DNA of 64,000 bases from Patescibacteria group bacterium (GTDB lineage: Bacteria > Patescibacteriota > Patescibacteriia > GWA2-46-9): assembly GCA_041675205.1 (NCBI GenBank), contig JBAYUF010000001.1, positions 20,863 to 84,862 on the forward strand, written 5' to 3'. Both the position numbers and the translations under genes were made by a program. The notes under the pieces are model-generated. The model searched no databases, was not told where the DNA came from, and saw only the letters and a program-made list of their open reading frames with translations. Of the stretch, positions 7,301 through 53,240 are shown one piece after another. The first letter of the stretch is position 1. The number at the start of each line of letters is the position of its first letter.

Positions 7301-7445
7301 AAAAACTAACTGAGACGAGTGAGAGATGAAGACGCCCCGTTCGTGCTAGTGCGTGAACAGGGCCTGAGAGCGAAAAATGAAATGTGGAATTGAACAATCT
7401 ACGTTTCTTTACTTGTCTCAGTATAGCATAAAAAATGCGCTTCGT

Positions 7446-8303
7446 CTATGCCGAATCACGCATTTTTTTTAAGAGTTTGAGTTCGCGAATAACTTCTGTT
7501 CCCTTTTCATCTCTCGGCGTTTCAAGAACACCAGGAATGGTGCGAAGACTCGGAGTTTTTAGTAATGCCGCAAAGGCAAGGCGGCCAAGTTTCCCTTGGC
7601 CAATATTTTCGTGTCGATCGACGTGCGAAGCAAAATCTGTTTTAGAGTCGTTGAGGTGTAAAAGTTTAATACGCCCCTTACCAATGGTTGCCGCACACAG
7701 TCGCAAGGTTTTAGTAATACCGGCAGTGGTGCGTACATCGTATCCTGAAGCAAAGGCGTGTTGCGTGTCCAGGCATACGCCAAGTCGGAGTGTTGGATGT
7801 GCCGCTTCAACAGCATGGATAATATCTCTTAGCTCCTCGAAGGTGTCGCCAATAGTTGCACCAGAGCCGGCGGAAAGCTCGAGGAGTAGCTGAGCCGTAC
7901 CCGTATAACCAGTCAGTAATTTTTTTATACCAGCGATAGTCATTGCTACACCAGCAGCTTCGCCAACCGCTTTCGCTGAACCAAGATGCGTTACAACACC
8001 CACGCACCCAAGCAAGCTGGCGCGCTCTAATTCTTCACGAATAATTGCTGACGAACCATTCGCAATGCGCGGTAGGGGTGAAGCGAAGTTGATGAAGTAA
8101 GGGCTGTGAATGTAGGCGGCACGAATGTTGTTTTCCTTCATTGCCTTCCGAAAGCTCGCAGCTAGTTCTGTTGTAATTTTTGGTGCTGGGCCACCTTGCG
8201 GCGGGCGAGAAAAAATTTGCATTACTTCGCACCCCCAAGCGGCCGCTCGAGCAGGCGCAAGCCCGACATTGCCAGCCGCGGAAACGTGCGCGCCCAGGTA
8301 CAT
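7446..8303 (-). CDS. nfo: Endonuclease IV (AP endonuclease, Nfo family)
   Basis: MYLGAHVSAAGNV start, TIM-barrel AP endonuclease 2 signature regions, 285 aa. Confidence 0.9.
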   Translation of the reverse strand: MYLGAHVSAAGNVGLAPARAAAWGCEVMQIFSRPPQGGPAPKITTELAASFRKAMKENNIRAAYIHSPYFINFASPLPRIANGSSAIIREELERASLLGCVGVVTHLGSAKAVGEAAGVAMTIAGIKKLLTGYTGTAQLLLELSAGSGATIGDTFEELRDIIHAVEAAHPTLRLGVCLDTQHAFASGYDVRTTAGITKTLRLCAATIGKGRIKLLHLNDSKTDFASHVDRHENIGQGKLGRLAFAALLKTPSLRTIPGVLETPRDEKGTEVIRELKLLKKMRDSA

Positions 8304-24263: not shown

Positions 24264-24288
24264 AAGACGGCAGCCAGCCGTCTTTTTT
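24264..24288 (+). terminator. Rho-independent terminator
   Basis: AGACGGC-agcca-GCCGTCT followed by TTTTTTG. Confidence 0.7.
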
Positions 24289-24370
24289 GCTATTGAAAAA
24301 AGTTGAGAAACGTGTTACAATGTATGCAGAAAATCAAAAAAATAAAGAAAAAATCAATATTATTACTTTT

Positions 24371-27300
24371 ATGATACAACGTTTTCTTGGCGGTCACCTT
24401 TTTCATACAGCAGAGGAGTTGGCGGTAGGCCGAAAAGTTTCGGCTAGAAATTTTGAAAATTCAGTAACGGCTAAATCTTACTTAGCTCGTTCGTTTTTTG
24501 TCGTTGGGTTACTTGTGGGTCTGGGTTTTATTTTTGCCGCGCCGACGCCAACCTATGCCGCAGCAAAAACATGGGATGGTGGCGGTGGTTGTGGCTCCGG
24601 CACGAACAGGTACGCATCCTGCGCAGGCAACTGGAATAGCAACACACTCCCAGTAGACGGGGATTCAATTAATTTTACCGATACAAATGGGTCGCAAGAA
24701 TTCTTATGGGACAATAATACATACGGGACCCTGCCAACAACGGTTGCCTCCTTTACTACCAACTACTATGGCTCAACAAACACCCTAACATTTCAGAAGT
24801 CATTAACAGTTACCGATGAATATCACGCCACGTCTAGTGCAGATAATGTAACGATTAATAGCGGGGTTACGCTAACGGCCGGTTATTTTTTTATAACAGA
24901 TGCAACGGTTACAAATAATGGAACGATTAAATTTACTTGTACCTACGGCACCACCTGTGGCGGGACTAGCCATGACGCTGCATTTTATGGTTCTGGCGCA
25001 CTTGCCTCATCAGCTTCAACTTCAATTGCTGAATATGCAGGTACAAATCAACCCGTATATAACGCCAATTATTACCATCTAAAAATATCTGGAACAGCCG
25101 TTAACTACGGTTTTCAAATTGCAAGTAATGGTCAAATATCAGGGAGCGGGACACTAACAGCTGGTACGGGGACAACCACGTTTAGTGGTAGCGGTACCAT
25201 CAATCTTCCTAACGCTGGATTTACAACGTTGTGGGTAGGTACCAGCGGTACGTTAACAGTTAATCAGAATATTTCAGTGTCAACTAGCATTGGTGCGGGT
25301 CCGTTTACTAGTGGGAATACAATCACCTACGGGGGTACTCCGACCCTCACTATGACCGGCGGTACAATTGCCGCAGCTTCTGTGGCAACCATGAATCTTT
25401 ATAATGTAACCATCGCTGGTGCCGGAGTGACCAGCACAGGGACCCCTAACATTGCAAACGCGTTTGTAGTTAATTCTGGAGCGACCTTTAGTGGTTCTAT
25501 GGCGAAGACCGGTGGTTCAATAACGAACAATGCTGCGACATCGAGCGCCCTAACGATTACGACCCTAGCGCTTACTTCAGGCACGATAACCACTGGTTCC
25601 AATTTTGATTTGTCGACGAGTATTTCTGGGGCGGGGAATTTCACTGCCTCGGCAGGTACCATTACCATGACCATGACAAGTGGCACGGCGATAGCAGCGG
25701 GTGCCGGCACACTGACATTCAATAGCGTTGCTATTGCTTCTGGCGCCACCGTTGCAACAGGTCGTAATTTTAGTGTGGCCGGTAACTGGACGAATAGCGG
25801 CGGAACATTTACGCCAAGCACGTATACCGTTACGTTGAGTGGGGCGGGCGGTTCTACCCAAGTCATCGCAGGTAATACAACCTTTTATAACCTTACGGCG
25901 ACAGCTGCTGCGGCTCGCACCATTCGATTTACCGCTGGCACTACCACTACAGTAACTGGCACGTGGACTGTCACTGGTTCAGCTTCTCAGTTAATAACTT
26001 TACAGTCTTCAACGACGAGTGCTTGGACTATTAACCCCACTGCGGCAAGCGTAAGTTACGCAAGCATTTCTTATTCGACCAATACCGGCGTGGCATTTTG
26101 CGCTACCTATTCTACCGACGGCGGCAATAACACAAGCTGGTCAATTGGAAGTGCCGCCAGTTGCGGCGCAACGATATCTGGTACGGTGTATTCGACCGAA
26201 GGTGGAGCAGGCATCACCGGCACACCAACGGTGCGTATTAAAGTAAATGGTGCTGGCACGTATAGCACAACGGCTAGTAGTGGCGTATTTAGCGTTTCTT
26301 CTGTCGTTGTAAATTCAGGCGATGTAATCACTGTCTATTTGGACACTAACGGTGGTAGCTCAGCAGCCCTCGTTACGGTTTCTGATGGTAGTAATACGTC
26401 GAGCCTCTCCCTCTATCAAAATCAGTTGGTCGTTCGTTATGAAACTGGTTCATCCATAACGAATACGAATCTTGGGCAATACGACAAGGATAACGATTCA
26501 GACATTCATTTTACTTCCAATGCCGGTGTACTGACCGTTGATAGCGATTACGAGTTGCATATTTGGACGGGTAAGACATTTGCACCAGGTGGCACCGTCA
26601 CGGCTAATGGCGATGTGCACATTATGGGTACCTATACCGCACCAGCGACTACGACCGTGGCTGGCAGCTTCACTAACGCTGGTACTTTTACTCCCGGCAC
26701 GGGAACACTGACCTTGTCTGGTACGAGTAAACAAATTACTGGTACCCCAACCAGTGAATCGTTCTATGACCTAACCATTTCAGGCACTGTAGCAAGTACT
26801 CGTAGTTTCACTGTTTCGCACACCATGACCGTAAACGGCACCTTTACACCAGGAGCAAGCGACGTTGTTACCTTAACGGGGGCAACGCTCACGGGGTCGG
26901 GGACAGTTAAAGTTACAAGAACGACAACTATCCCAGCATTCGTTAATCAATATGCCTACACCACCCCAGCGCCAACCTTAACAAATTTGACGGTTGACTA
27001 CAGTGGTACTAGTCAAATAGTAACGAACCTAACGTATTCGAACCTCATCGTTTCCGGAACTATTACAACAGGAACGCAAACAGCAACAGTGAGTGGACTC
27101 TTTACTGTTTCGGGTACGTTTACTCCATCAGCCGGAACGATAACGTTAAGTGGGACAAGCGGCACTGTTTTAACCGTCAGTGGTACACATGCACCAACCG
27201 GCACGGCTACGACCGTCTACAGTGGCGCCAATGCTGGCGGCAATACAAACGTTGCAGCGGCTACCTACAACAACCTTCAGGTGACCGGCGCTGACACCTA

Positions 27301-29998
27301 CGACCTCGCTGGGGACACAACTGTTTCGGGTGTCCTTACTATCGGCGGCTCAGCTACGCTCGACGGAAAGACTCGTACCATCACCCTCTCCGGCACTTCT
27401 GGTACACCCTTCGTCAAAACTGGTACCTTCACTCCTTCAACCTCAACCGTTGTCTACAGTGGTGCCAATGCTAGCAGTAACACCAACGTTGCAGCGGCCA
27501 CGTACAACAACCTCCAGGTTACTGGTAGCGACACCTACGACGTAGCAGGAGACACAACTGTTTCGGGGGTCCTTACTATTGGCGCAAACGCCACCCTAGA
27601 CGCCCAAACATACACAGTAACGCTATCTGGTTCTGGTACACCACTTGTAAAGACAGGTACATTTACCGCTTCAACCTCAACCGTAACGTATAGCGGTAGT
27701 TCACCTACCATTGCAGCGACTACGTATAACGTCTTGAATCTGTCTGGCTCTGGCACAGCAGTATTGCCGAGCGGTACCCTGGCAGTACTAGACTTAAATG
27801 TAACTACTGGAACAGTTTCTGCCGCGAGCAATAACCCAACCATTAACGTCAGTGGAAACATTGCATTGTCGAGTGGTGTTACCTATACAAAAGGTTCTGG
27901 TACTACGACGTTTTCTGGTGCCTCGAAGACAATTACTGACAGTACGGCTAGCGCACAGGATTTGGGTGTAGTTTCAATTTCTGGGACCTATGCTCTCTCG
28001 TCGAATGCTAAAATGACCAGCGTAGCCGGAGCCGGAGCATTAACAACGAATGCCAATACCCTAACGTTGACCGGTTCTGGTACCGTTTTGTCTGTTACGA
28101 CATTTACCGCTTCGACTGGTTCTACGGTTACCTATACCAGCGGAAGCGGTGCTTCTGTTGGTGCAAGGACCTACTACAATCTGACCATCAATGGTACGGG
28201 TACGTTCGCTGCGGCGGGTGCTATCATTGTGAATAACGATCTGACGGTGACCAGTGGAACCTTGGCCATGGATACGAGTAACCTACAAGTTGGTTTATCG
28301 AGTATCTCAAGTTCTGGTAGCGTTAAGGTTGCGGCAAGTCAATCGCTCACTCAATCAGCCAGTGGGACCACAACAATTCTTAGTTCGTCAGCCGGAGCAA
28401 ATTGTATTGGCTCCAATGGCTCCAATTGCAGTGGGACGGCAGGAACAATTACTCTTGGTGGCTTGTCGATTGGGGATGGAGTGTCAGGCAACTTCACAAC
28501 AACTCTTGCCGGAGATGTCACTATTGCTGGTGTCCTCACTATTGCTAGTACAAACACGCTCGACGGTTCGACTCGCACCATAACCCTCTCTGACACCTCT
28601 GGTACACCGTTCGTGAAAACCGGTACCTTCACCCCTTCAACCTCAACCGTTGTCTACAGTGGTGCCAATGCTGGCGGCAATACAAACGTTGCAGCGGCCA
28701 CGTACAACAACGTCCAGGTTACTGGTAGCGACACCTACGACGTAGCAGGAGACACAACTGTTTCGGGTGTCCTTACTATCGGCGCCTCGGCCACGCTCGA
28801 CGGTTCGACTCGCACTATCACTCTCTCCGGCACCTCCGGTACACCTCTTGTCAAAACCGGTACCTTCACCCCTTCAACTTCGACCGTTGTCTATAGTGGT
28901 GCCAATGCTAGCGGTAACACCAACGTTGCAGCGGCTACGTATAATAACCTCCAGGTTACTGGCAGCGACACTTACGACGTAGCAGGGGACACAACTGTTT
29001 CAGGGGTCCTTACCATTGGCGCCTCAGCCACGCTCGACGGTTCGACTCGCACTATCACTCTCTCCGGCACTTCTGGTACACCGCTTGTCAAAACCGGAAC
29101 CTTCACTCCTTCAACTTCGACCGTTGTATTTACTGGTGACAATGGTGGTGGAACAACAACCATTCCAACAGCAACCTACTACAATCTTACAGTGAACAAT
29201 GCGAGCGAAACGTATGCGCTTGGTTCGGGGAGTCCAGTGGTGAACAATGATTTAACTATTACTGCCGGTACCCTTGACCTCGACGCAAGTGACCCGTCGC
29301 TCTCAGTAAAGGGAGACGTGGTAATTGCCGGTACGCTCCTTGGTTCGGCTAGTAGCCCCCTCAATGTTGATGGTGACTGGACCAACAATGGTACATTCAC
29401 TCATTCAAACGGTACCGTTGCATTTACGAACAGTGCGGGGTTACTGGAAACGTCAAATATTGGTGGCTCAAACGGTACGAACTTCTACTCACTCAGCGTC
29501 ACTGCGAATGGAAAGTATCTTCGATTTGCGGCCGCCAAAACGTTTGGGGTTGCTGGTGTGCTGACGATTACGGGTGGTCAAGCTATTCCCGACAACATTC
29601 GTATTTTCTCAAGTACTGTCGGGGCTGGTTCAAGTAGTGATCAGTGGCTGCTTAATCTCACTGGTTCCTCGAATGTTCTCTTCGCGATTGTTCAGAACGC
29701 TGGCTGTGCGCCAGGGTCAAGTTCTGTGGCCTCGCACTCAACGAATACAAACGCCGGGAATAACAGTGCGTGTTGGCCCTTTGGTGTTCCTGGAGCGCCT
29801 GATGTGACTGGTGGTCGTTTTGATCAACCCGGCGGGGGTACGGCTACAACCGGCGGTACAAGCCTTAGTGGAGGTATTAGTGGTGGCGGAGGCGGTGGCG
29901 GAGCACCAAGTCCTGACCGACTTGATGAACCGGGTGGTGGCGCACCGACAACGGGTGGAACTGATCAAGGAAGTGGTGGTGGAGCACCTGCTCCGTAG
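24371..29998 (+). CDS. Giant surface repeat protein (about 1875 aa) with an N-terminal anchor and at least 5 copies of an 80-aa T/S/G-rich module
   Basis: Hydrophobic SFFVVGLLVGLGFIFAA. Repeated module TRTITLSGTSGTP(F/L)VKTGTFTPSTSTVVYSGANA..NTNVAAATYNN.QVTG.DTYD.AGDTTVSGVLTIG. Gly-rich C-terminus. The start is uncertain: the ORF-track 24287 and the ATG at 24320 both overlap the upstream terminator and a TGtTACAAT -10, so 24371 is plausible. Confidence 0.65.
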   Translation: MIQRFLGGHLFHTAEELAVGRKVSARNFENSVTAKSYLARSFFVVGLLVGLGFIFAAPTPTYAAAKTWDGGGGCGSGTNRYASCAGNWNSNTLPVDGDSINFTDTNGSQEFLWDNNTYGTLPTTVASFTTNYYGSTNTLTFQKSLTVTDEYHATSSADNVTINSGVTLTAGYFFITDATVTNNGTIKFTCTYGTTCGGTSHDAAFYGSGALASSASTSIAEYAGTNQPVYNANYYHLKISGTAVNYGFQIASNGQISGSGTLTAGTGTTTFSGSGTINLPNAGFTTLWVGTSGTLTVNQNISVSTSIGAGPFTSGNTITYGGTPTLTMTGGTIAAASVATMNLYNVTIAGAGVTSTGTPNIANAFVVNSGATFSGSMAKTGGSITNNAATSSALTITTLALTSGTITTGSNFDLSTSISGAGNFTASAGTITMTMTSGTAIAAGAGTLTFNSVAIASGATVATGRNFSVAGNWTNSGGTFTPSTYTVTLSGAGGSTQVIAGNTTFYNLTATAAAARTIRFTAGTTTTVTGTWTVTGSASQLITLQSSTTSAWTINPTAASVSYASISYSTNTGVAFCATYSTDGGNNTSWSIGSAASCGATISGTVYSTEGGAGITGTPTVRIKVNGAGTYSTTASSGVFSVSSVVVNSGDVITVYLDTNGGSSAALVTVSDGSNTSSLSLYQNQLVVRYETGSSITNTNLGQYDKDNDSDIHFTSNAGVLTVDSDYELHIWTGKTFAPGGTVTANGDVHIMGTYTAPATTTVAGSFTNAGTFTPGTGTLTLSGTSKQITGTPTSESFYDLTISGTVASTRSFTVSHTMTVNGTFTPGASDVVTLTGATLTGSGTVKVTRTTTIPAFVNQYAYTTPAPTLTNLTVDYSGTSQIVTNLTYSNLIVSGTITTGTQTATVSGLFTVSGTFTPSAGTITLSGTSGTVLTVSGTHAPTGTATTVYSGANAGGNTNVAAATYNNLQVTGADTYDLAGDTTVSGVLTIGGSATLDGKTRTITLSGTSGTPFVKTGTFTPSTSTVVYSGANASSNTNVAAATYNNLQVTGSDTYDVAGDTTVSGVLTIGANATLDAQTYTVTLSGSGTPLVKTGTFTASTSTVTYSGSSPTIAATTYNVLNLSGSGTAVLPSGTLAVLDLNVTTGTVSAASNNPTINVSGNIALSSGVTYTKGSGTTTFSGASKTITDSTASAQDLGVVSISGTYALSSNAKMTSVAGAGALTTNANTLTLTGSGTVLSVTTFTASTGSTVTYTSGSGASVGARTYYNLTINGTGTFAAAGAIIVNNDLTVTSGTLAMDTSNLQVGLSSISSSGSVKVAASQSLTQSASGTTTILSSSAGANCIGSNGSNCSGTAGTITLGGLSIGDGVSGNFTTTLAGDVTIAGVLTIASTNTLDGSTRTITLSDTSGTPFVKTGTFTPSTSTVVYSGANAGGNTNVAAATYNNVQVTGSDTYDVAGDTTVSGVLTIGASATLDGSTRTITLSGTSGTPLVKTGTFTPSTSTVVYSGANASGNTNVAAATYNNLQVTGSDTYDVAGDTTVSGVLTIGASATLDGSTRTITLSGTSGTPLVKTGTFTPSTSTVVFTGDNGGGTTTIPTATYYNLTVNNASETYALGSGSPVVNNDLTITAGTLDLDASDPSLSVKGDVVIAGTLLGSASSPLNVDGDWTNNGTFTHSNGTVAFTNSAGLLETSNIGGSNGTNFYSLSVTANGKYLRFAAAKTFGVAGVLTITGGQAIPDNIRIFSSTVGAGSSSDQWLLNLTGSSNVLFAIVQNAGCAPGSSSVASHSTNTNAGNNSACWPFGVPGAPDVTGGRFDQPGGGTATTGGTSLSGGISGGGGGGGAPSPDRLDEPGGGAPTTGGTDQGSGGGAPAP
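27211..27710. repeat. Tandem array of about 240-bp units (2+ copies) inside the giant gene
   Basis: Direct repeats at about 90% nucleotide identity that encode the 80-aa module. They are related to the second array at 28520-29140. Confidence 0.8.
28520..29140. repeat. Second tandem array of about 240-bp units (about 2.5 copies) inside the giant gene
   Basis: Near-identical units starting near 28560, 28800 and 29040. Confidence 0.8.
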
Positions 29999-46114: not shown

Positions 46115-46498
46115 ATGAACGCGACGCATCTTGCAACAGAGGAAAAATTTAAAGATTTGCGGGTGTGGCAGCAAGCCCACGAGTTAACACTTTTGGTGTA
46201 TAAGATAACAAAAAGTTTCCCTGACACGGAGCGTTTTGCCTTAGTAAGCCAAATGCGTCGTGCAGCAATCTCAGTGGTTGCCAATATTGTCGAAGGGTCT
46301 AAACATCGTACAACGAAGGATCGTATTCATTTTCACGTTATAGCAAATGGCTCGCTCGAAGAGTTAAAATACTACTTCATTTTATCGTTAGATCTCGGAT
46401 TCATTAACCAGAAAGAGCAGGAAGACTTACTTGATTTGGCGAGAGGCGTTGGTGCTATGTTACATGGTCTTACTAATGCTCTGCGCAGTGGCGTATAG
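46115..46498 (+). CDS. Four-helix-bundle protein of the TIGR02436 family (23S rRNA intervening-sequence protein type)
   Basis: LRVWQQAHELTLLVYKITKSFPDTERFALVSQMRRAAISVVANIVEGS is the family signature; 127 aa. Confidence 0.85.
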   Translation: MNATHLATEEKFKDLRVWQQAHELTLLVYKITKSFPDTERFALVSQMRRAAISVVANIVEGSKHRTTKDRIHFHVIANGSLEELKYYFILSLDLGFINQKEQEDLLDLARGVGAMLHGLTNALRSGV

Positions 46499-46525
46499 CG
46501 TAAAGCATATAGCGTATGGGTTTAG
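46495..46525. repeat. Right inverted repeat of the four-helix-bundle gene cassette
   Basis: GGCGTATAGCGTAAAGCATATAGCGTATG. Its reverse complement matches the left repeat at about 24 of 30 positions. Confidence 0.5.
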
Positions 46526-47316
46526 CCATTCTTTTCCTGGGTGACGTTGTAGGGCGAGTTGGCCGTACTGGTGTTGCGAAAGTTTTAAAGCACTGGAAGA
46601 CCCAACTGCAGCCAGATGTCATTATCGCGAACGCTGAAAATATTGCGCATGGGAAGGGCATTACCCGGGCGACCATCGAGGAATTACGTGTCGCTGGTGT
46701 CGATGCTTTTACTAGTGGGAACCATGTTTTCCGAAAGCCAGAGATTTACGATTTTATTGAGGACCCGAAATTGCACATTACTCGGCCGGCGAATTATCCG
46801 CCCGGCGTCGCTGGTAGTGGCGCCACCTTGGTGCCCACCCCACATGGTGACCTACTCCTCATAAACACGATGGGACGAGTTTTCATGCATGAAACATTGG
46901 ATTGCCCGTTTCAGGCGGTCGATTCGGTTCTGGCGGATTACCAAAATCGCCCGCACGTCGCCACCTTTGTTGATATGCATGCTGAAGCGACCAGCGAAAA
47001 GATAGCCTTCGGTCACTACCTTGATGGTCGGGTTAGTGCTGTTGTTGGCACCCACACGCACGTAGCGACGGCTGACGCAGAGATTTTACCTGGTGGCACG
47101 GCGTACATTACTGATGTTGGTATGTGCGGCTATAAAGGTGGTGTGCTTGGCGTTGATAAAGCTAACGTACTACATGCCTTTTTAACGCAAGAGCCAGTTC
47201 GTCATGAAATTCCAGAAGCTGGTTTGTGTGCTGTAAACGGCGTGCTCGTTGTTATTGATGCCTCTAACGGCAAGGCAATTTCTATTCGGCAACTGCACGA
47301 AGAAGTGATGGTGTAG
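46516..47316 (+). CDS. ymdB: YmdB-family metallophosphoesterase (2',3'-cyclic-nucleotide phosphodiesterase, TIGR00282)
   Basis: MGLAILFLGDVVGRVGRTGV...DVIIANAENIAHGKGIT...GNHVF. Confidence 0.85.
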   Translation: MGLAILFLGDVVGRVGRTGVAKVLKHWKTQLQPDVIIANAENIAHGKGITRATIEELRVAGVDAFTSGNHVFRKPEIYDFIEDPKLHITRPANYPPGVAGSGATLVPTPHGDLLLINTMGRVFMHETLDCPFQAVDSVLADYQNRPHVATFVDMHAEATSEKIAFGHYLDGRVSAVVGTHTHVATADAEILPGGTAYITDVGMCGYKGGVLGVDKANVLHAFLTQEPVRHEIPEAGLCAVNGVLVVIDASNGKAISIRQLHEEVMV

Positions 47317-47340
47317 TGCCTGGGGGGTGCGACATTTAGC

Positions 47341-47369
47341 AAAAACCCAGCCTGGCGGCTGGGTTTTTT
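47341..47369 (+). terminator. Rho-independent terminator after the ymdB-like gene
   Basis: AAAA-CCCAGCC-tggc-GGCTGGG followed by TTTTTTG. Confidence 0.8.
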
Positions 47370-47376
47370 GTACTCT

Positions 47377-48480
47377 CATGGGGCACGCAGGAGGAGAGAG
47401 ATTTTCTCGCGGCAAACGCTTCTTTTTGAAGAGAGGCGTCTACGTTTGAGATCTGCGTACCCCATGAGAGTGGGCGAGGGTGAAGAGGAAAACGGTTGAA
47501 GATACAATTTTCTTTCTTCACCCTCGCCCGGCGCTGAAGGAGGCTCTTCGGCGCCCTTTGAAGATAATGCAAAGTCGCAGTATCGGCAAAGGGCAACGCA
47601 CCTCATTATTATATGGGAAGAGGCGGAAAACGAGTGCTGTCGTTTTTCCGCCCCGAAGAACGTGGAGTGGGTGCATTTAGGTGCACAACCACTCCGCATC
47701 GACCGGGTTGACGCTCATTGATGAGCCTTTTTCCACGGTCTGGAGAAAGACGGAGGGGGTAGAAGGAAAGTACCACCACACCTCCGCAGCGCGCACAAAT
47801 GAGCCAAAGAGTGACCGGACGGTTTTTTCCGTAGTCGTTTTCTCTTTTTGTGCACATTCCGCGCGCTAAAGAAACTAGGGTGGGAGAATCGTGGAGCGTT
47901 GCGCTCCGGAAGGAATTCTCTTGGTGGACATCCACCCTAGGGTCCACAAGGGACCAGTTCTTTGTGAGTATTTTTACCCACGGACCTTGGGATTAGAAGC
48001 TGGAAGTATTGATCCAAGGGATCACTTCCGAAAGAGTAGTTTCAAAGAAGTGGCGCAGGATAAGCCGAACCAAATCTTTTCTCTACCGCCTTGGCTCTAT
48101 AGCGAGCACAAGTCTAACCCCGAAGTCCGTAGGCAGCTCTGATAACAGAGCACCCACGGATGTTGGCCTTGTTAGAGACTCCCACCACCCTCCGGGCTAA
48201 GCGCTGGCGTGACCCGAAGGTTGCCGGCGTAATGATCTTTTAGCAGGGACTCGCGAGTTTGCACCAGCGAAAGCCTTGCTTTGAAATCTGCCCGTCCACG
48301 AAACGTGGAACAGGTTTAGCCCTTAAGGGTGGTAGGAACCTCACGCGATAACAAAACGGCGCAGCCGCTTTTGAAAGAGACTGCGCCGTTTTGGCGTACA
48401 CCAACTAACCCTAACGGGTTTGTTGGCGAGTCTCTCTCCTCGCGTTTTGACTGAGGTTAAATTCAAAGAGCACGGTTTGT
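47377..48480. ncRNA. Candidate large structured non-coding RNA of unknown family (or an array of structured elements)
   Basis: 1.1 kb at GC of about 55% with no ORF above 112 aa in any frame, in an otherwise 90%-coding genome. Several perfect stem-loops: a 15-16 bp stem at 47472-47487 / 47515-47529; an 11-bp stem at 47622-47632 / 47641-47652; nested helices at 47875-47940 (CTAGGGTGG...CCACCCTAG enclosing GGAGCGttGCGCTCC); and long-range pairing 47377-47390 with 47453-47466. Confidence 0.3.
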
Positions 48481-48677
48481 TCCATTTAAGGAACTAAGTA
48501 GCATAGCGCAGCTTAGGGAATATGTCAAGACTTAACAAGAAAAGAGCTGTATTTACTAAGAAAATAGGAGTTTTTGGTCATTTGTGGAAACTAAATCTAT
48601 CGGTTAGAGTACTTGTGTATAGAGTAAAAGCACGTTTTTTGAGGCCTTAATAGAATCATCCTTGAACCAGGAACGCC

Positions 48678-50231
48678 TTGAATTTTAAGTATAGGAAGAG
48701 AAGTAAATTGGTACGATTTATGACACCACATTATTTAAATGACAAAGATCCCTGGTTACTGGGAGAGAATATTCCTGACTCAGATATTTTCTTTTTTCAA
48801 ATTGTCTTCTCGTCATTTACAAACGACAGAAGTTACTCGTTCATTAAAAAGTACAAGAAAGTAATAGCTCCGTACGATAAATTTAATATGAGTTTCTATT
48901 TTGGAGAGAGAGATTCGTATCTTGTTGCGGAGAGCGTATTAAGGGCTTTGATAGAGCGTCCAAAGTTTGCCACAGAGCTAAATCGTAATATTGTTGCCTG
49001 GTCCAAAAAACTTATGCTATTTGCGCGTAGGGTAGCAAGAAAACCTTTGCATAAATTTTCAAATACGGCATTGTGGCGGTTATATGATGAACATGATCGT
49101 GTGCATACCAAGCTATACACGTATGGATGGTTGCCAGTGTCGGTCGATATGTTTCACAACAATATGACCACTGAGCTAAAGCGACGCTTGGCAAAAGTCT
49201 GTACATCGAGTCAAGAAGTCAACGAAGCTTTTGTTTTACTTACGACTCCTTCACAAAAAACAATTATTGCCAAAGAGCGTGAAGAGTTTTTGGCGATTTA
49301 TACTAAAGCAAAACCATATCTAAGAAAGAGTGTTACTGCTGTTGCATTTCCGCTAAGCCTTCAGAGACTCTGTCGTCGACATCAGCAGCGCTGGGGGCAT
49401 CTTGGATATATTTACGCCGGTAATGTAGAGCCGTTTTCGGTGCAATATTATATTCAAGAGATGGTTGATCTTAAGCGAAGCAACATAGAGGTAAGTAGTT
49501 TATTGATAAAAGAAAAAAGCCAATTGCTGGAAGCAGTGCGTAAGCAAAAAGCATTTTATAAAAAAAATAAGATGTCTCCTGAAGATGTGCGTTTATTTGC
49601 CGCCGCGAGAGATTTTTCAATAAGTAAACTTTTTCGCCGCCACGCCCAGCTGCTTGATCTTTATCTTCTGCACAAAAGCTTATTATCAGAAATTGCTCAG
49701 CGCCTTAGCCTGACACGTTTTCAGGTCCAGTTTATGTTGAAAGACGAAATAAAGGCGGCGCTTATCAATGGCAAAGTTGATGACTCCTTGTTGTCTGAGC
49801 GTTTAAAACAGGGCGTTTATTATACGGAGCCGGGTCTTGAAACTGTTTACACGGGCCGCAAGGCACGAGTCTTGGCTAAGGCGCTTGCTAGTGTTGGCAT
49901 TGGTGAAGGGGACGAAGTTACTGGTCAAACGGCCCAACCGGGTTATGCAAAAGGTGTTGTGAAAATTATTATTCGGGCGAAGGATATCGCAAAGATGAAT
50001 AAAGGTGACATTTTGGTGTCTATCGCTACTGACCCTGATATTGTGCCAGCCATGAAAAAAGCCGGAGCGATTGTTACTGATCAGGGCGGCATAACGTCGC
50101 ATGCCGCAATTGTAAGTCGAGAGCTAAATAAGCCGTGCGTGATAGGAACTAAATATGGCAGTAAGATTTTTAAAGACGGCGATATTGTTGAAGTAGATGC
50201 AACGAACGGGATTGTAAGAAAAGTTACTTAA
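48678..50231 (+). CDS. PEP-utilizing-enzyme swivel (phospho-His) domain protein, paralog A: unknown 400-aa N-terminal domain plus C-terminal mobile His domain
   Basis: C-terminal GDILVSIATDPDIVPAMKKAGAIVTDQGGITSHAAIVSRELNKPCVIGT is the PEP-utilizers (PF00391) signature with the catalytic His. TTG start (alternative ATG at 48720). AT-rich. Confidence 0.65.
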   Translation: MNFKYRKRSKLVRFMTPHYLNDKDPWLLGENIPDSDIFFFQIVFSSFTNDRSYSFIKKYKKVIAPYDKFNMSFYFGERDSYLVAESVLRALIERPKFATELNRNIVAWSKKLMLFARRVARKPLHKFSNTALWRLYDEHDRVHTKLYTYGWLPVSVDMFHNNMTTELKRRLAKVCTSSQEVNEAFVLLTTPSQKTIIAKEREEFLAIYTKAKPYLRKSVTAVAFPLSLQRLCRRHQQRWGHLGYIYAGNVEPFSVQYYIQEMVDLKRSNIEVSSLLIKEKSQLLEAVRKQKAFYKKNKMSPEDVRLFAAARDFSISKLFRRHAQLLDLYLLHKSLLSEIAQRLSLTRFQVQFMLKDEIKAALINGKVDDSLLSERLKQGVYYTEPGLETVYTGRKARVLAKALASVGIGEGDEVTGQTAQPGYAKGVVKIIIRAKDIAKMNKGDILVSIATDPDIVPAMKKAGAIVTDQGGITSHAAIVSRELNKPCVIGTKYGSKIFKDGDIVEVDATNGIVRKVT

Positions 50232-50236
50232 ATAAT

Positions 50237-51709
50237 GTGACTCAAAAAGGAAAACAAGAGTGGATACTAGGAAACGAGGAGGAGGGCGTTAGCCCGTGGT
50301 CCTTGGGTGTTTTTACGCCAGCCTTTCGTTTTGGTGTTGCTCGTCGCGCTCAATATTCCATCCCACACTTCATTGTGTTTGAAGGTACTCATATGCGTTG
50401 GATACCTAGTAAAAAAGATACAGAACAACTCTCAGAAAGGTTATTGAAGAAACAAATAAAAAATCAAAATTACCTTACGTTTGTGAGCCATCAATCGGTC
50501 AAATCTTGTGATAGATTGTATGACTTTTCTGATAAATGTTTAGAATATAATTACAGCCCTCTTAGCAATAAAGAGTTCGCCAACTTTTTTATCAATCACG
50601 AAAAGTTAGTTAGGGATGTTCTTGGTTGGGGCGTACTCCCGGCCTTAATGGATATTCCGCGCCCGGTGCTTTCCGATTACGCTACAGAGCTGCTATCTAA
50701 AAGAATTCGCCAGTTAAAGTTAATGGATTCTTCGGCCGATTGTTTTGCCAGCTTAACTGCGGATATTGATAATAATATTCAACGGCAAGAACGGTTAGCT
50801 TTAAAACGATTGGCCGTTGTGATTTACAAAAATCAGAAAAATGTAGAGGAGCGAATAAAAAAACATATAGCCAAATTTTCTTGGGCTTACTACGGATATA
50901 TTGGGCCAATACTTAATGCTGGCCATGTAAAAAAGGAACTTAAAAGGTTGTTTAAAGAAATTAAAAAAACAGAAAAAGAATTAAAACAATTGCCACACGA
51001 AAAAAGACAAATCAAAAAAAAGCGATTGGAAATGGAACGTAAGTTAAAATTGACCACAGCCGAGCGTAAACTTTTTGAAGGAATGAGAGAAGTGATGATT
51101 ATGAAGGCTGCTCGTCGTGATGCCTTGTCTTATTCTTTTTATGCTATGCAAGGCGCACTTCAAGAGCTTGCTCGGCGGTCTGGTGTGTCAATTAATCATA
51201 TTCAAAACGTAGCTCCTTGGGAGCCGTCGTTACTGCTTCAAGGTAATTCTGATTTAAAAAAGGAATTACCAAAACGAAGTAAGATTTGTATTCTCGATGG
51301 AACTACTGTTAAACTTCGCGTTTTGTCTGGTGTCAAAGCAAAACAGTTTTTAAAGCAAAATTATAAGTCTGAAGTAGTAAAAAACAGTAAGGAGTTAAAA
51401 GGTCAGGTTGCCTGTGTAGGTATGGCTAGAGGTAAGGTAAAAATTGTTAATACGCCGTCTGACATGGTCAAGATGAAGCAAGGGGACATTCTTGTTTCTA
51501 TTGCCACCACACCGGATATTGTGAGTGCTATGCGTAAAGCGGGAGCCATTGTAACGAATACTGGGGGTATTACCTCTCATGCGGCAATTGTGTCTCGGGA
51601 GCTTAATGTTCCCTGCGTGATAGGTACGAAGTTTGCAACCCAGGTATTTAAAGATGGTGATATGGTTGACGTGGATGCAAACAAGGGAATCGTGAGACGG
51701 ATTAAATAA
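50237..51709 (+). CDS. PEP-utilizing-enzyme swivel-domain protein, paralog B
   Basis: C-terminal GDILVSIATTPDIVSAMRKAGAIVTNTGGITSHAAIVSRELNVPCVIGT. The N-terminus aligns with paralogs A and C (K.EWILGNEEEG..PW.LGVF). GTG start. Confidence 0.65.
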   Translation: MTQKGKQEWILGNEEEGVSPWSLGVFTPAFRFGVARRAQYSIPHFIVFEGTHMRWIPSKKDTEQLSERLLKKQIKNQNYLTFVSHQSVKSCDRLYDFSDKCLEYNYSPLSNKEFANFFINHEKLVRDVLGWGVLPALMDIPRPVLSDYATELLSKRIRQLKLMDSSADCFASLTADIDNNIQRQERLALKRLAVVIYKNQKNVEERIKKHIAKFSWAYYGYIGPILNAGHVKKELKRLFKEIKKTEKELKQLPHEKRQIKKKRLEMERKLKLTTAERKLFEGMREVMIMKAARRDALSYSFYAMQGALQELARRSGVSINHIQNVAPWEPSLLLQGNSDLKKELPKRSKICILDGTTVKLRVLSGVKAKQFLKQNYKSEVVKNSKELKGQVACVGMARGKVKIVNTPSDMVKMKQGDILVSIATTPDIVSAMRKAGAIVTNTGGITSHAAIVSRELNVPCVIGTKFATQVFKDGDMVDVDANKGIVRRIK

Positions 51710-51719
51710 CTAGCAGTTT

Positions 51720-53240
51720 ATGGCATCAAAAAAAGATTGGTATGTTTGGGGTGAGTGGCCAGGAATTCCCTGGTTCAATAGTTGTTATATGTACACTCTT
51801 TCGTTAGATCTTTCAAAACGTACTGGTATACCAATTACACATTTTGCGACTGATTATAAAGAAGGGGTTCAACGCGTTTATTTGTTACGGCATGAATGGG
51901 AAAATGGTGGATTTTTGTATCTCAAAAAAATTCTCAGGAATCCTAATAGTTTAATCAAAGCGTTGGAGTCTATTGAGAGTAATGCAAAGAAATTAAAAGA
52001 GTTTAATAGCGAGGTACGGAAAATTGCAGTGGAAGCTTGCACATTGAATGAGTTGGCAACATTGTGTCATCGGTTTCACAAAATTAACCATGAATTATGG
52101 TCTGCGGGGATGGTTCCCAATTTATTAGAATTAAACCAAGCGCACCTTTCGGGTTATTTGCGCGGGTATATTAACAAACAAACTAAATCAGATATTTCTG
52201 CAGATGACTGGCAAATTTTGATTACGCCAACTAAAAAGTCGGCGGCCCAACAGGAAGAACTTTCGTTACTCTTGCTTGCTAATAAGATTTCAAAGAACAT
52301 CAAGTTGAGACAGTTGTTTGAACGCAAGCAAAATGACGTTTCTGAAGCAATCGAGCTTTTACATTTTCCAAAGATTAAACAAGAAATTCGTCAGCATTAC
52401 CAGAAATATAAATGGTTACAATTTGGATGGACTGGCCCAGATTCTACTCCTGAACAACTAATCGGACGATTGGCGGCCCTACTTCACGAAGGTTATGTTT
52501 CAACCTGCCTTCAGGACAAAATTCAGGCGGAACAAGTAGTAGCAAGGAAACAAAAATCATTGCTGTCGTCGATTGGCGTTGATAGAGAACATCGACAGTT
52601 GTTACAGTTACTTCAACGAATATTATTTGTAAAGACAGTACGCATGGATGCGCTTTACGAAGGTTACTCAGCCTTTCATCCGGTAGTACAGGAGATTGCT
52701 AAGCGTTTTTCACTTTCCTTGAATCAGCTTTATATGGTGTACCTTGGTGATTTAGAACATGCGGTGAGAACAAAATCCTTTGACCATGAAAAATTAAATG
52801 CACGTTCCCGTTATTCTGCGTGTATTAAACAGAACGATCGTCTTGTATTTTACAGTGGTGAGCAAGCCCATAAGAAAATGAGCTTAATAATTTCAAGTTT
52901 ACCCAAGGTTAAAAAAACCCATACAGTTAGTGGTGAGTGTGGGTATCCGGGGAAGATCAGTGGTGTAATTAGGTTCGTTCCGACATCGAAGGATATGTAT
53001 AAAGTAAAAAAGGGAGATATTTTATTATCCCAAGCAACTGACCCGTCTTTTTTGCCGGCCATGGAAAAGGCTGCTGGCTTTGTTACGGATTTGGGTGGCT
53101 TAACAGCTCATGCCGCTATTGTCGCTCGTGAAATGAAAAAACCTTGCGTGGTTGGTACAAAAATTGCCACAAAGATTTTTAAGGATGGCGATATAGTTGA
53201 AGTGGACGCAAGTAGGGGGATTGTTAAGAGAATAAAGTAG
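51720..53240 (+). CDS. PEP-utilizing-enzyme swivel-domain protein, paralog C
   Basis: C-terminal GDILLSQATDPSFLPAMEKAAGFVTDLGGLTAHAAIVAREMKKPCVVGT. Confidence 0.65.
   Translation: MASKKDWYVWGEWPGIPWFNSCYMYTLSLDLSKRTGIPITHFATDYKEGVQRVYLLRHEWENGGFLYLKKILRNPNSLIKALESIESNAKKLKEFNSEVRKIAVEACTLNELATLCHRFHKINHELWSAGMVPNLLELNQAHLSGYLRGYINKQTKSDISADDWQILITPTKKSAAQQEELSLLLLANKISKNIKLRQLFERKQNDVSEAIELLHFPKIKQEIRQHYQKYKWLQFGWTGPDSTPEQLIGRLAALLHEGYVSTCLQDKIQAEQVVARKQKSLLSSIGVDREHRQLLQLLQRILFVKTVRMDALYEGYSAFHPVVQEIAKRFSLSLNQLYMVYLGDLEHAVRTKSFDHEKLNARSRYSACIKQNDRLVFYSGEQAHKKMSLIISSLPKVKKTHTVSGECGYPGKISGVIRFVPTSKDMYKVKKGDILLSQATDPSFLPAMEKAAGFVTDLGGLTAHAAIVAREMKKPCVVGTKIATKIFKDGDIVEVDASRGIVKRIK

Follow-up and report, generated by a model that had tools for sequence, protein, structure and literature searches.

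What is encoded by the kilobase of DNA that lies between ymdB and an AT-rich stretch in this Patescibacteria genome? The sequence-only reading of the window (the whole 64-kb stretch of DNA analysed here) had singled out 47377-48480 as a hairpin-rich region and had proposed, as its first option, an unclassified large structured RNA. That option is supported here by conservation, by covariation and by the absence of Rfam matches and of protein matches to the ORFs searched. At a probability of about 0.6, the region appears from its sequence to be the gene for a large, densely folded noncoding RNA of ~1,155 nt, encoded on the minus strand and belonging to an undescribed family confined to a narrow Uhrbacteria-like clade of Patescibacteria.

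Composition and coding content of the region

GC content is ~0.52 (range 0.50-0.55) over 47300-48500 and drops to 0.31-0.42 from ~48500. The region is therefore not AT-rich and ends at an AT-rich edge, as had been stated. The claim that it holds no ORF above 112 aa was borne out by the six-frame ORF list, in which the longest ORF within the region is 112 aa (47609-47947, minus strand). It overlaps a second minus-strand ORF of 107 aa in a different frame. None of the ten ORFs tested from the region contains a Pfam domain. The 112-aa ORF gave 0 matches in a HMMER search of 1.84 billion representative proteins, and an 83-aa called ORF matched only itself in a word-indexed protein database search; the 107-aa ORF and most short ORFs were compared with Pfam at most. 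The check for a protein pseudogene that had been suggested was thus negative within this scope (Pfam on ten ORFs, database searches with the 112-aa and 83-aa ORFs).

No credible ORF was found in 47341-48528 of the window, and no conserved small ORF with a Shine-Dalgarno (SD) sequence was found in the window copy or in the relative L027 (L0xx labels denote relatives' loci). The window copy does have one weak SD followed by a GTG ORF of 55 aa, which is non-hydrophobic and whose frame is broken in L025. Interior indels relative to L025 are not multiples of three and so break reading frames. A peptide, KISLLLRAP, that is held in common with L032 derives from the conserved 3' domain of the RNA.

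Folding and strand

Folding was compared with that of dinucleotide shuffles in 200-nt windows. MFE z-scores were -3 to -13 across 47300-48500, as against ~-3 to +3.5, mostly within +/-1.5, in flanking coding sequence. When the whole 64 kb was scanned with GC correction, the 300-nt windows in 47301-48500 were the top outliers on both strands. Long perfect stems, which had been described by eye, are present, for example at 47472-47486 with 47515-47529 (15/15) and at 48352-48371 with 48374-48393 (20 nt). The predicted transcript has an MFE of -546.5 kcal/mol, with 70.6% of bases paired and 22 hairpins; long-range pairs in the MFE fold, such as that of the purine motif (below) with nt ~745-754, were not trusted.

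The minus-strand fold lies 27 kcal/mol below that of the plus strand, which also folds far better than its shuffles. In the alignments, many helix cells are G-U, which the plus strand would read as A-C mismatches; the opposite holds for a few C-A cells towards the outside of the 3'-domain helix, where the plus strand would form G-U pairs. Taken together, the motifs, the G-U asymmetry and the covariation suggest that the RNA is encoded on the minus strand.

A predicted transcription unit

The elements that delimit the predicted transcript, and two hairpins in its 5' part, are as follows.

47341-48494, minus strand: whole predicted transcript, ~1,155 nt, from the predicted transcription start site (TSS) at ~48494 to the end of the terminator U-run
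48500-48528, minus strand: predicted sigma-70-type promoter, TTGACA-17 nt-TATGCT (10/12 in a consensus scan)
48479-48494, minus strand: 5'-terminal stem-loop GUUCC-UUAAAU-GGAAC, placed by its sequence position at or next to the predicted +1
48347-48393, minus strand: T1, a long A/U-clamped hairpin with a CU-rich loop (inverted repeat I2), followed by UUUUGUU
47341-47369, both strands: bidirectional intrinsic terminator (A-run, 12-bp stem, U-run UUUUU), shared with convergent ymdB

The window, L027, L031 and L040 all have the promoter elements CTTGACA and GCTAT unchanged, while the spacer and flanks vary. A conserved -35/-10 pair with 16-18 nt spacing, combined with an intrinsic terminator, has the appearance of an independent transcription unit. 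Downstream of this promoter, from 48500 to 47341, the minus strand has no other promoter-like site in the scan; a weak (9/12) site is present on the plus strand inside the region. The 5'-terminal stem-loop is identical in L027 and has the same stem in L040, and L031 carries UUCUG/CAGAA instead. A terminator-like hairpin follows the 3' domain in 8/8 homologs, with a U-run in most that is weak or absent in L032 and L040. Judging from the motifs at both ends, transcription probably starts at the conserved promoter and ends at the terminator shared with ymdB.

These ends modify the bounds given earlier. A terminator hairpin does lie at 47341-47368, where the region had been said to start after the ymdB terminator, but it belongs to the unit. 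The unit accordingly runs from 47341 to ~48494, with the promoter extending to 48528, rather than from 47377 to 48480. No minus-strand gene lies downstream of the transcript, as the terminator faces the 3' end of convergent ymdB; a cis-regulatory leader or riboswitch was ruled out for lack of a same-strand gene downstream.

T1 resembles an intrinsic terminator and lies ~100-147 nt past the predicted TSS. It is kept in four lineages, with 5 of its 16 predicted pairs changed on both sides. T1 could terminate most transcripts, in which case the product would be a short sRNA rather than one large RNA.

Homologs and family architecture

Homologs were found through relatives of YmdB and through one metagenome pattern scan, in which L042-L044 were chance matches. 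Eight distinct homologs including the window were available, of which four are full length (window, L027, L031 and L040); L026, L049, L058 and L059 were left out because their sequence ends too early at the locus. All seven Uhrbacteria-like lineages whose sequence context is long enough have the element at one and the same site, convergent to rny-ymdB, and in L040 the neighbouring gene is a different one, on the other strand. It is missing from YmdB relatives at <=55% identity (L046, L048, L050). A scan of genome contigs with YmdB returned only distant phyla (39-48% identity), all without the element, and 2.9 million viral contigs gave seven chance matches, none of which fits the 3'-domain model.

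Nucleotide identity to L025, the closest relative, is 81% over 473 nt, whereas the adjacent ymdB is only 73% identical. The proposed comparison with relatives thus showed a conserved region, and one whose helices covary. With L027, whose YmdB is 62% identical, the window has ~12 collinear blocks in common. Full-length E-INS-i alignments were partly wrong in the interior, and helices were therefore analysed block by block.

Across the family, the same 5' and 3' modules enclose ~0.2-2.7 kb. The interior of the window copy and of L027 is structured RNA only. Between the same modules, small ORFs that have strong SDs and a predicted TM helix are present in L031, L032 and L040. These cargo ORFs are orphans without Pfam domains and are mutually dissimilar (a 201-aa ORF in L040 is likewise an orphan), and tblastn found no trace of them in the window or L027. 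The 3' domain of L039 seems to make up a unit of only ~0.2 kb, which an IS interrupts.

The 3' domain

47372-47471, minus strand: 3' domain built from a 21-bp closing helix, a hairpin inside it and a large internal loop, compared in eight distinct homologs

The closing helix had been recognized earlier as 47377-47390 with 47453-47466; it is real and longer, pairing 47372-47390 with 47453-47471 (19 nt, 95% complementary). Across the eight homologs, 93.3% of cells in the domain's helices are paired. Changes on both sides were seen in 13/30 pairs, compared with 6.2+/-1.5 in shuffles (0/500 reach 13) and 1-6 in slid controls, so that compensatory pairs exceed the controls as expected of a structured RNA. 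The large internal loop displays an invariant element, GAAAAUCUCUCUCCUCCU (47389-47406), which is the 18-nt pyrimidine strand GAAAAUCUCUCUCCUYCU. A covariance model of the domain has a single hit in the window, on the minus strand at 104 bits, and the domain is single copy per locus among the homologs. It is far more conserved than the rest of the RNA. As only eight homologs, four of them full length, were available, the covariation is convincing in statistical terms for no more than the 3' domain and a few hairpins.

Proposed pairing between the 5' and 3' ends

48426-48443, minus strand: purine-motif hairpin GCGAG-GAGAGAGA-CUCGC, whose stem covaries with L027 (CAGAG/CUCUG)

The purine motif GAGGAGAGAGA (48431-48441) is an 11-nt perfect complement of the pyrimidine strand of the 3' domain, and the sole 11-nt complement of that strand in 64 kb on both strands. 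It is also the best duplex partner of the strand, at -21.1 kcal/mol in the window and -20.7 in L027. All full-length lineages have the complementarity: the window and L027 could form 11 bp, L040 10 bp and L031 9 bp; manual comparison of the sequences showed one G-C to A-U covariation in L040. The long-range helices, this 5'-3' clamp included, have at most one covarying pair each. Since purine motif and pyrimidine strand are complementary in every full-length lineage, the two most simply belong to one molecule. A search of the 64 kb for trans targets of the strand gave only the 5' motif of the RNA itself. For the strand of L031 and L040, the SD-like CAGGGGAGGGAA is about as good a partner as the 5' motif.

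Interior domains

Between the two end modules, the following structures were distinguished.

48175-48342, minus strand: domain whose closing helix, long-range and 17 bp in length, pairs 48326-48342 with 48175-48191 (inverted repeat I6; MFE)
48089-48159, minus strand: core with a UUAUC-loop hairpin, the strand (C)GAC.U.G.GGGUUAGAC and the next hairpin (alignment with L027 and L031)
47960-47999, minus strand: core block UCUAAUCCC-AGGUC-GGG...CACAAAG, conserved in the window, L027, L031 and L040
47875-47940, minus strand: domain closed by CUAGGGUGG/CCACCCUAG, with a GCAA-loop apical hairpin (inverted repeat I16)
47530-47867, minus strand: variable interior with six further hairpins (collinear blocks with L025 and L027)
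47472-47529, minus strand: long near-perfect hairpin directly upstream of the 3' domain (inverted repeat I4, 15/15)

The first of these domains contains GGGCUAA/UUAGCCC, a CCACG hairpin and a UUCG-loop hairpin. It is common to L027, where GGGCUAA/UUAGCCC becomes GGGCUAG/CUAGCCC, and is absent from L031 and L040. Of 21 predicted pairs in the core at 48089-48159, 3 are changed on both sides among the window, L027 and L031, and the strand (C)GAC.U.G.GGGUUAGAC is conserved in these three and in L040. The block UCUAAUCCC was proposed from sequence as a possible partner of GGGGUUAGA; this core helix shows no covariation and competes with a local hairpin.

The apical hairpin of 47875-47940 has 3/6 pairs fully compensatory relative to L027, with a conserved loop. 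The variable interior, which includes GCGGAGUGG...CCACUCC, GCCCUUUG...CAAAGGGC and a GCCUCCUUC loop, shows both covariation and G-U changes. Compared with L025, the hairpin next to the 3' domain carries, as read on the minus strand, two changes from G-C or A-U to G-U and one compensatory change. Double-changed pairs in interior hairpins number 6, 3 and 3, counts from 2-4 sequences that are supportive without statistics. The interior is also plastic: L025 is unalignable beyond ~480 nt upstream of the 3' end. Given this plasticity, the 0.2-2.7 kb size range and the ORFs in some relatives, much of the 1.1 kb could be dispensable or neutral.

Comparison with known RNA families

Cmscan with Rfam (4227 models, gathering thresholds) detected two tRNAs only in the whole window, and a permissive cmscan of 47200-48700 (E up to 10) returned only chance hairpins such as miRNA precursors. 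Rfam matched nothing in the seven homologous loci. The models of GOLLD, ROOL, OLE, HEARO and raiA, which the sequence-only reading had named for this check, have no match in the window, the region or those seven loci. Nor was there an Rfam match to RNase P RNA, tmRNA, SRP RNA, 6S RNA, group I or II introns, riboswitches or, in the region, any sRNA model. ARAGORN reported 0 tmRNA or tRNA genes in 47000-48800. Earlier negatives obtained by eye for RNase P RNA, tmRNA, SRP RNA, group II introns and the cobalamin riboswitch agree with these cmscan and ARAGORN results. No tandem repeats or CRISPR were found in the region, and the literature search found no description of this RNA.

Alternative explanations

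The small ORFs in relatives' interiors keep partly alive the option that the window copy is a decayed or ORF-less derivative, that is, the relic of a structured small-membrane-protein mRNA with a hok-like 5'-3' fold-back and little or no function of its own. L031, L032 and L040 have SD-led TM ORFs between the same modules, the pyrimidine strand of L031 and L040 has in CAGGGGAGGGAA a partner about equal to the 5' motif, and the interior evolves fast. However, no remnant of the cargo ORFs is detectable by tblastn in the window or L027, and these ORFs are orphans unlike one another. The ORF-free interior is collinear between these two copies despite a YmdB identity of 62%, and its hairpins carry compensatory changes. 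Conservation is higher in the 3' half than in ymdB, and the promoter, the 5' hairpin, the purine motif, the 3' domain and the terminator each remain intact, which makes a relic rather unlikely. We regard as similarly improbable a cluster of separate minus-strand elements, in which a ~147-nt sRNA ending at T1 and an independent 3' sRNA would be joined by structured filler. Such a cluster would agree with the terminator features of T1 in all four lineages, with the apparently short, IS-interrupted 3'-domain unit of L039 and with the far greater conservation of the 3' domain. Yet an independent 3' sRNA has no promoter-like site of its own on the minus strand from 48500 to 47341, and the interior blocks are conserved, collinear and covarying. 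Furthermore, the purine motif lies upstream of T1 and complements the strand at the 3' end in every full-length lineage.

The remaining alternatives carry far less weight. Many palindromes, an 11-bp inverted repeat (I9) near both ends, a nearby bAvd-like gene (46115-46498) and the IS in L039 could point to selfish or repetitive DNA, be it REP/MITE-like palindromes, a decayed mobile element or the DGR template of the bAvd-like gene. This is very unlikely, as no part of the region recurs in 64 kb (neither a VR-like copy nor a multi-copy palindrome), tandem repeats are absent, each locus has one 3' domain at always the same syntenic site, and the viral contigs hold no true match. A REP/MITE repeat was rejected on the lack of a second copy of any part within 64 kb, and a DGR template on the lack of similar sequence elsewhere in the window and on the absence of the bAvd-like gene from L027, L031 and L040, which retain the RNA. 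Slighter still is the chance of a plus-strand feature, either an extended, structured 3' UTR belonging to ymdB or the 5' leader of PEP-utiliser-domain genes from 48678 onward. Flanking genes on both sides are on the plus strand, which itself folds well, but ymdB is cut off from the region by a strong terminator, inside which the plus strand offers only the weak 9/12 site while the minus strand has the conserved promoter, and G-U pairs and one-sided changes fit the minus strand. The different, oppositely oriented neighbour in L040 also argues against it. A frame-shifted pseudogene of a protein-coding gene could be read from the overlapping 112- and 107-aa frames and is barely credible; the Pfam search of ten ORFs and the protein searches with the 112- and 83-aa ORFs were negative, substitutions in stems are compensatory rather than synonymous, and the peptide shared with L032 is explained by the 3' domain.

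Proposed function and relation to known systems

The preferred reading remains one large noncoding RNA, which would be self-clamped, stable and regulatory or a scaffold. Patescibacteria genomes are generally described as very small and gene-dense. Retention of ~1.15 kb of folded RNA in such a genome, with a sequence better conserved than that of the protein gene next to it, therefore argues for a real function. The 3' domain would be the functional core, displaying its invariant 18-nt pyrimidine strand, which resembles an anti-Shine-Dalgarno sequence. This strand would dock on the purine loop GAGGAGAGAGA near the 5' end and so clamp both ends into a compact RNA; together with the 5' stem-loop, docking should confer nuclease resistance. 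Pairing of the same kind could let the strand mask purine tracts that resemble SDs, in cis in the ORF-bearing relatives. The ORF-free window copy might act by masking in trans, or the RNA might serve as a scaffold.

A broader proposal, which we put forward tentatively and consider doubtful, is that this RNA is the founding member of a new class: a large ornate CPR RNA built as a self-clamping chassis, with fixed docking modules, an expandable interior and a role in assembly. The interior of 0.2-2.7 kb would then hold either structured RNA or small membrane-protein genes, and a part in RNA turnover could explain the fixed site beside rny (RNase Y). We know of no described analogue in which fixed RNA end-modules enclose an interchangeable RNA-only or small-protein interior. 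The family is well suited to two questions, namely how large RNAs gain length and how structured RNA and small ORFs turn into one another.

Among known systems, the C- or CU-rich seed sRNAs of Gram-positive bacteria (RsaE/RoxS type) pair with Shine-Dalgarno regions. Like them, the RNA described here has a conserved unpaired pyrimidine-rich strand adjoining an intrinsic terminator; the strand is perfectly complementary to the extended SD-like AGGAGGAGAGAGA, and the 3' domain of L039 is seemingly an sRNA-sized unit. In contrast to those sRNAs, the strand occupies the large internal loop of the 100-nt domain that ends this 1.15-kb RNA, and its best partner is inside the same RNA, with no trans target in 64 kb. 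Judged by sequence, the proposed arrangement also resembles that of hok-type type I toxin mRNAs, in which the 5' end is complementary to a segment just upstream of the 3' terminator (the fbi/tac pairing) and folds back on it to close a compact RNA, and the relatives' enclosed ORFs are, as in hok, small hydrophobic proteins with maskable SD-like sequences. However, the present RNA is three to seven times larger, has no sequence similarity to hok and carries no toxin-like ORF in the window copy or in L027.

Large structured bacterial RNAs with no known function are rare and comprise OLE, GOLLD, ROOL, raiA and few others; GOLLD and ROOL are often phage-associated. With GOLLD, ROOL and raiA, this RNA has in common its size class, its own (here predicted) transcription unit and dense conserved structure. 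It differs from GOLLD and ROOL in its fixed chromosomal locus and its absence from viral contigs, and from all three in a far more variable interior that holds ORFs in some relatives. OLE, like the present RNA, is a noncoding RNA of large size and extensive structure, rich in conserved hairpins (PMC3413148, PMC12286853). OLE of Firmicutes extremophiles is genetically linked to the small membrane protein OapA, and here relatives' predicted transcripts encode small single-pass membrane proteins. Unlike OLE, this RNA is about twice the size, occurs in another phylum, neither matches the OLE model nor has motifs in common with it, and lacks a linked membrane-protein ORF in the window copy. By analogy with OLE, its putative role would be unlike that of a classical sRNA. 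Large structured bacterial RNAs have repeatedly revealed unexpected biology, most recently RNA-only multimeric complexes, which GOLLD and ROOL are described as forming (PMC12286853). Under the broader proposal above, the RNA beside ymdB may take part in a higher-order RNA or RNA-membrane-protein assembly, as do OLE, GOLLD and ROOL, rather than act as a conventional base-pairing regulator.

Folding of the gene-free kilobase

The gene-free kilobase at window positions 47341-48528 is, with a probability of about 0.85, a real and conserved gene for a structured RNA, predicted to lie on the minus strand. The sequence-only reading had described an ORF-free interval of normal base composition, and this was confirmed: between the end of ymdB and the first gene with a PEP-utiliser domain, no ORF in any frame exceeds 112 aa. 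GC content is 0.50-0.55, equal to that of the left coding flanks, and drops to 0.31-0.42 only past ~48500. The long stems of that reading were recovered as real by an inverted-repeat search, and the long-range closing helix exists, pairing 47372-47390 with 47453-47471 (19 nt, 95% complementary).

Features of the region (window positions)
46516-47316, plus strand: ymdB, left neighbour of the gene-free region
47341-47369: hairpin between an A-run and a U-run, predicted terminator
47472-47486/47515-47529: perfect 15-bp stem (inverted repeats)
48175-48191 with 48326-48342: 17-nt long-range helix (inverted repeats)
48352-48393: 20-nt stem (inverted repeats)
48494-48479, minus strand: 5'-terminal stem-loop GUUCC-UUAAAU-GGAAC at the predicted start (~48494)
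48528-48500, minus strand: sigma-70-type promoter TTGACA-17-TATGCT, predicted from sequence
48678 onward, plus strand: first PEP-utiliser-domain gene, right neighbour of the gene-free region

Folding of 47300-48500 is well past the chance level. Measured against dinucleotide shuffles, the z-scores of its 200-nt windows run from -3 to -13, compared with about -3 to +3.5, mostly within +/-1.5, for adjacent coding windows in the same test. In a GC-corrected scan of both strands, the top folding outliers of the 64 kb fall in this kilobase.

Strand and ends of the predicted transcript

Several independent lines of evidence favour the minus strand as the RNA strand: fold energy, G-U pairs, the predicted promoter, the 5' stem-loop and the terminator. 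The minus strand of 47369-48480 folds at -519.7 versus -492.7 kcal/mol for the plus strand, making it 27 kcal/mol more stable. The lone closing-helix mismatch, C-A on the plus strand, becomes G-U on the minus strand, and minus-strand G-U occurs in many cells across the homologs. Within the promoter region, four lineages that differ in spacer and flanks all keep CTTGACA and GCTAT unchanged. Because the hairpin at 47341-47369 is flanked by both an A-run and a U-run, it is predicted to terminate the minus-strand RNA as well as ymdB. At the same place past the 3' domain (47471-47372), each of the eight homologs has a hairpin, followed in most by a U-run that is weak or absent in loci L032 and L040 of two relatives. 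The predicted RNA is 1,155 nt long (MFE -546.5 kcal/mol), with 70.6% of bases paired and 22 hairpins.

Distribution and genomic context

By its YmdB, the source is a Patescibacteria MAG whose closest named relatives are Candidatus Uhrbacteria. Relatives of YmdB, together with one exact-pattern scan of JGI metagenomes, yielded seven further distinct lineages with a homologous region.

Loci of relatives bearing homologs, with YmdB identity to the window
L025: 80%
L027 (= L028 = L045): 62%
L032 (= L033 = L034): 62%
L031: 58%
L036 (= L041), L037 (= L040), L038 (= L039): further lineages

At every locus with enough context the RNA element is convergent to rny-ymdB, sometimes with an HU gene between. 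Among the loci examined, it was absent where YmdB identity was 55% or lower and in other phyla; viral contigs gave chance matches only. The RNA region is more conserved than the adjacent ymdB, at 81% identity to L025 over 473 nt versus 73%.

The neighbourhood holds other features. A bAvd-like gene (46115-46498, plus strand; 127 aa, four-helix bundle; Pfam 23S_rRNA_IVP and bAvd-like) sits as an insertion between rny and ymdB; the window, L025 and L058 carry it, and L027, L031, L039 and L040 lack it. Three tandem paralogs of 517, 490 and 506 aa (48678-53240, plus strand), recognisable solely by a C-terminal PEP-utilising-enzyme mobile domain, occupy the AT-rich island (GC 0.31-0.45). In L027 and L031, but not in L040, the RNA locus is likewise flanked by genes of this kind or by fragments of them. 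Elsewhere in the window, two giant ORFs of 1,850 and 1,903 aa are adjacent (18679-24231 and 24287-29998, plus strand). In L027 (Uhrbacteria CG10), ymdB and the RNA terminator are separated by ~700 extra nucleotides (6802-7500) that are poor in ORFs. A run of N occurs in this stretch, as does a long inverted repeat (~6935-7065), and it may represent a further structured element or a fault of the assembly.

Covariation

The 100-nt 3' domain aligned cleanly across all eight lineages, and RNAalifold placed in it a 21-bp closing helix and an inner hairpin, with 93.3% of cells paired. Double-sided changes were seen in 13 of 30 pairs; column shuffles gave 6.2+/-1.5 (none of 500 reached 13), and slid-register controls gave 1-6. 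The other helices were compared in only 2-4 sequences each. Among these, the A/U-clamped hairpin at 48393-48347 has double changes in 5/16 pairs (four lineages), and the hairpins at 47594-47472 have six against L025, along with G-C or A-U to G-U changes. Three double-changed pairs were found in the UUAUC-loop hairpin and the next one, and a GCAA-loop hairpin has three of its six pairs fully exchanged with the loop kept. About twelve collinear blocks are common to the window and L027 over their full length (1,131 versus 1,389 nt, L027 having extra insertions). The homolog set numbers eight, four of them full length, from a narrow clade.

Alternative readings

Known RNA families, several of which the sequence-only reading had looked for by eye without a convincing match, were rejected: Rfam gave no match for the region or seven homologous loci at gathering or permissive thresholds, and ARAGORN found no gene in the region. 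A protein-coding region was also rejected, as far as Pfam, protein databases, tblastn and frame-breaking indels can tell. Ten ORFs from the region had no Pfam match, the 112-aa ORF had no hit among 1.84 billion protein representatives, and tblastn with the interior ORFs of the relatives found no remnant of them in the window or L027. The sole candidate with an SD and a start codon in the window (55 aa) has its frame broken in L025, and indels against L025 are not in multiples of three. On the opposite strand inside the RNA gene, public (Logan) annotation calls an 83-aa ORF (47891-48142, plus strand); its sole match is itself, and it is almost certainly spurious.

Repetitive or mobile DNA would be expected to recur. 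No second copy of any part was found in the 64 kb and there are no tandem repeats in the region, while the 3' domain occurs once per locus at a fixed site; this reading was rejected. So was a DGR template for the bAvd-like gene, with no VR-like copy in the 64 kb and the RNA kept in relatives that lack the gene. A leader was rejected since the minus strand has no downstream gene.

Modular architecture of the RNA family

Conserved parts
(i) promoter and 5' hairpin
(ii) purine motif, partly exposed in a hairpin loop
(iii) A/U-clamped hairpin, then a U-run, with a CU-rich loop, ~147 nt past the start
(iv) core strands CGAC.UGGAGGGUUAGRC ... UCUAAYCCC-AGRUC-GGG ... CACAAA
(v) 3' domain, its large internal loop carrying the invariant strand GAAAAUCUCUCUCCUYCU
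(vi) terminator

The purine motif reads GAGGAGAGAGA in the window and L027, GGGAGAGAG in L031 and AAGGAGAGAG in L040. Part (iii) looks like an intrinsic terminator and could truncate many transcripts. Content between the core strands and the 3' domain differs radically among lineages. The window and L027 contain hairpins alone. L031 carries a pair of small ORFs, of 41 and 76 aa, both with a strong SD and both encoding a hydrophobic helix; L032 encodes such a helix in one ORF of 79 aa. The L040 member reaches 2.7 kb with a 201-aa orphan ORF and ORFs of 65 and 79 aa; in L039 only ~0.2 kb lies between promoter and 3' domain once an IS1595-like insertion is discounted. This hypervariable interior may be partly neutral.

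The 201-aa ORF (L040:3766-4371, plus strand; Ca. Uhrbacteria RIFCSPLOWO2_12_FULL_46_10) has a strong SD and is a complete orphan in a 5.8-billion-protein database. The L039 insertion (6674-7450, minus strand) encodes an IS1595-like transposase with an N-terminal zinc ribbon, located between a promoter-like site and the 3' domain; the insertion ends in inverted repeats (GTTGGAACAGG / CCTGTTCCAAC) similar to the two arms of the 5' hairpin of the RNA family.

A separate ~95-nt multi-stem element, absent from the window, occurs at L031:5715-5835 (minus), L040:4845-4965 (plus) and L041:815-935 (minus). Three small hairpins lie inside a closing helix (CCCCCGAACUCAUUA/UAGUGAGUUCAGGGGAGGG), and the element is 88-89% identical between lineages in which the flanking sequence hardly aligns. 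Its 3' arm holds an SD-like GGGGAGGG, which in L031 immediately precedes the 41-aa ORF. The element matches no Rfam family and could act as a regulator, either riboswitch-like or by sequestering an SD.

Proposed pairing of the two ends and possible function

The invariant pyrimidine strand of the 3' domain perfectly complements the purine motif, which lies 1,030 nt upstream; the 11 bp would pair 47391-47401 with 48431-48441. This motif is the only complement of that length in 128 kb of two-strand sequence. As a duplex partner it is by far the strongest both in the window (-21.1 kcal/mol, against -15.2 for the runner-up) and in L027 (-20.7 kcal/mol). By manual comparison, 10 bp are retained in L040 through a G-C to A-U exchange and 9 bp in L031.

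From this complementarity and a single covariation, we propose a clamp that joins the two ends of the RNA, formed when the 5' purine loop docks on the internal loop of the 3' domain. Together with the 5'-terminal and terminator hairpins, the clamp would make the RNA a compact particle resistant to nucleases. An SD-like CAGGGGAGGGAA is an about equally good partner for the pyrimidine strand in L031 and L040, and in L031 it is located 3 nt upstream of the 41-aa ORF start; in these two relatives the module may therefore act in cis to mask ribosome-binding sites. The ORF-free window copy might mask in trans, or have a scaffold or assembly role. This functional reading is a hypothesis to which we give a probability of roughly one in three.

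Comparison with known systems

Because no Rfam family and no description in the literature searched was found for this RNA, it is by elimination a new RNA class. Several known groups resemble it and none is a membership. The ornate large RNAs OLE, GOLLD, ROOL and raiA are closest in appearance, but the window RNA fails all their covariance models, is found in a different phylum and is unusually plastic in its interior. The pairing of OLE, a large RNA, with the small membrane protein OapA parallels the small membrane-protein ORFs of the relatives, without homology. C-rich seeds of RsaE/RoxS-type sRNAs resemble the pyrimidine strand. Closest in working is hok-type mRNA, which has the 5'-3' fold-back closure proposed here, although the window RNA is 3-7 times larger and carries no ORF.
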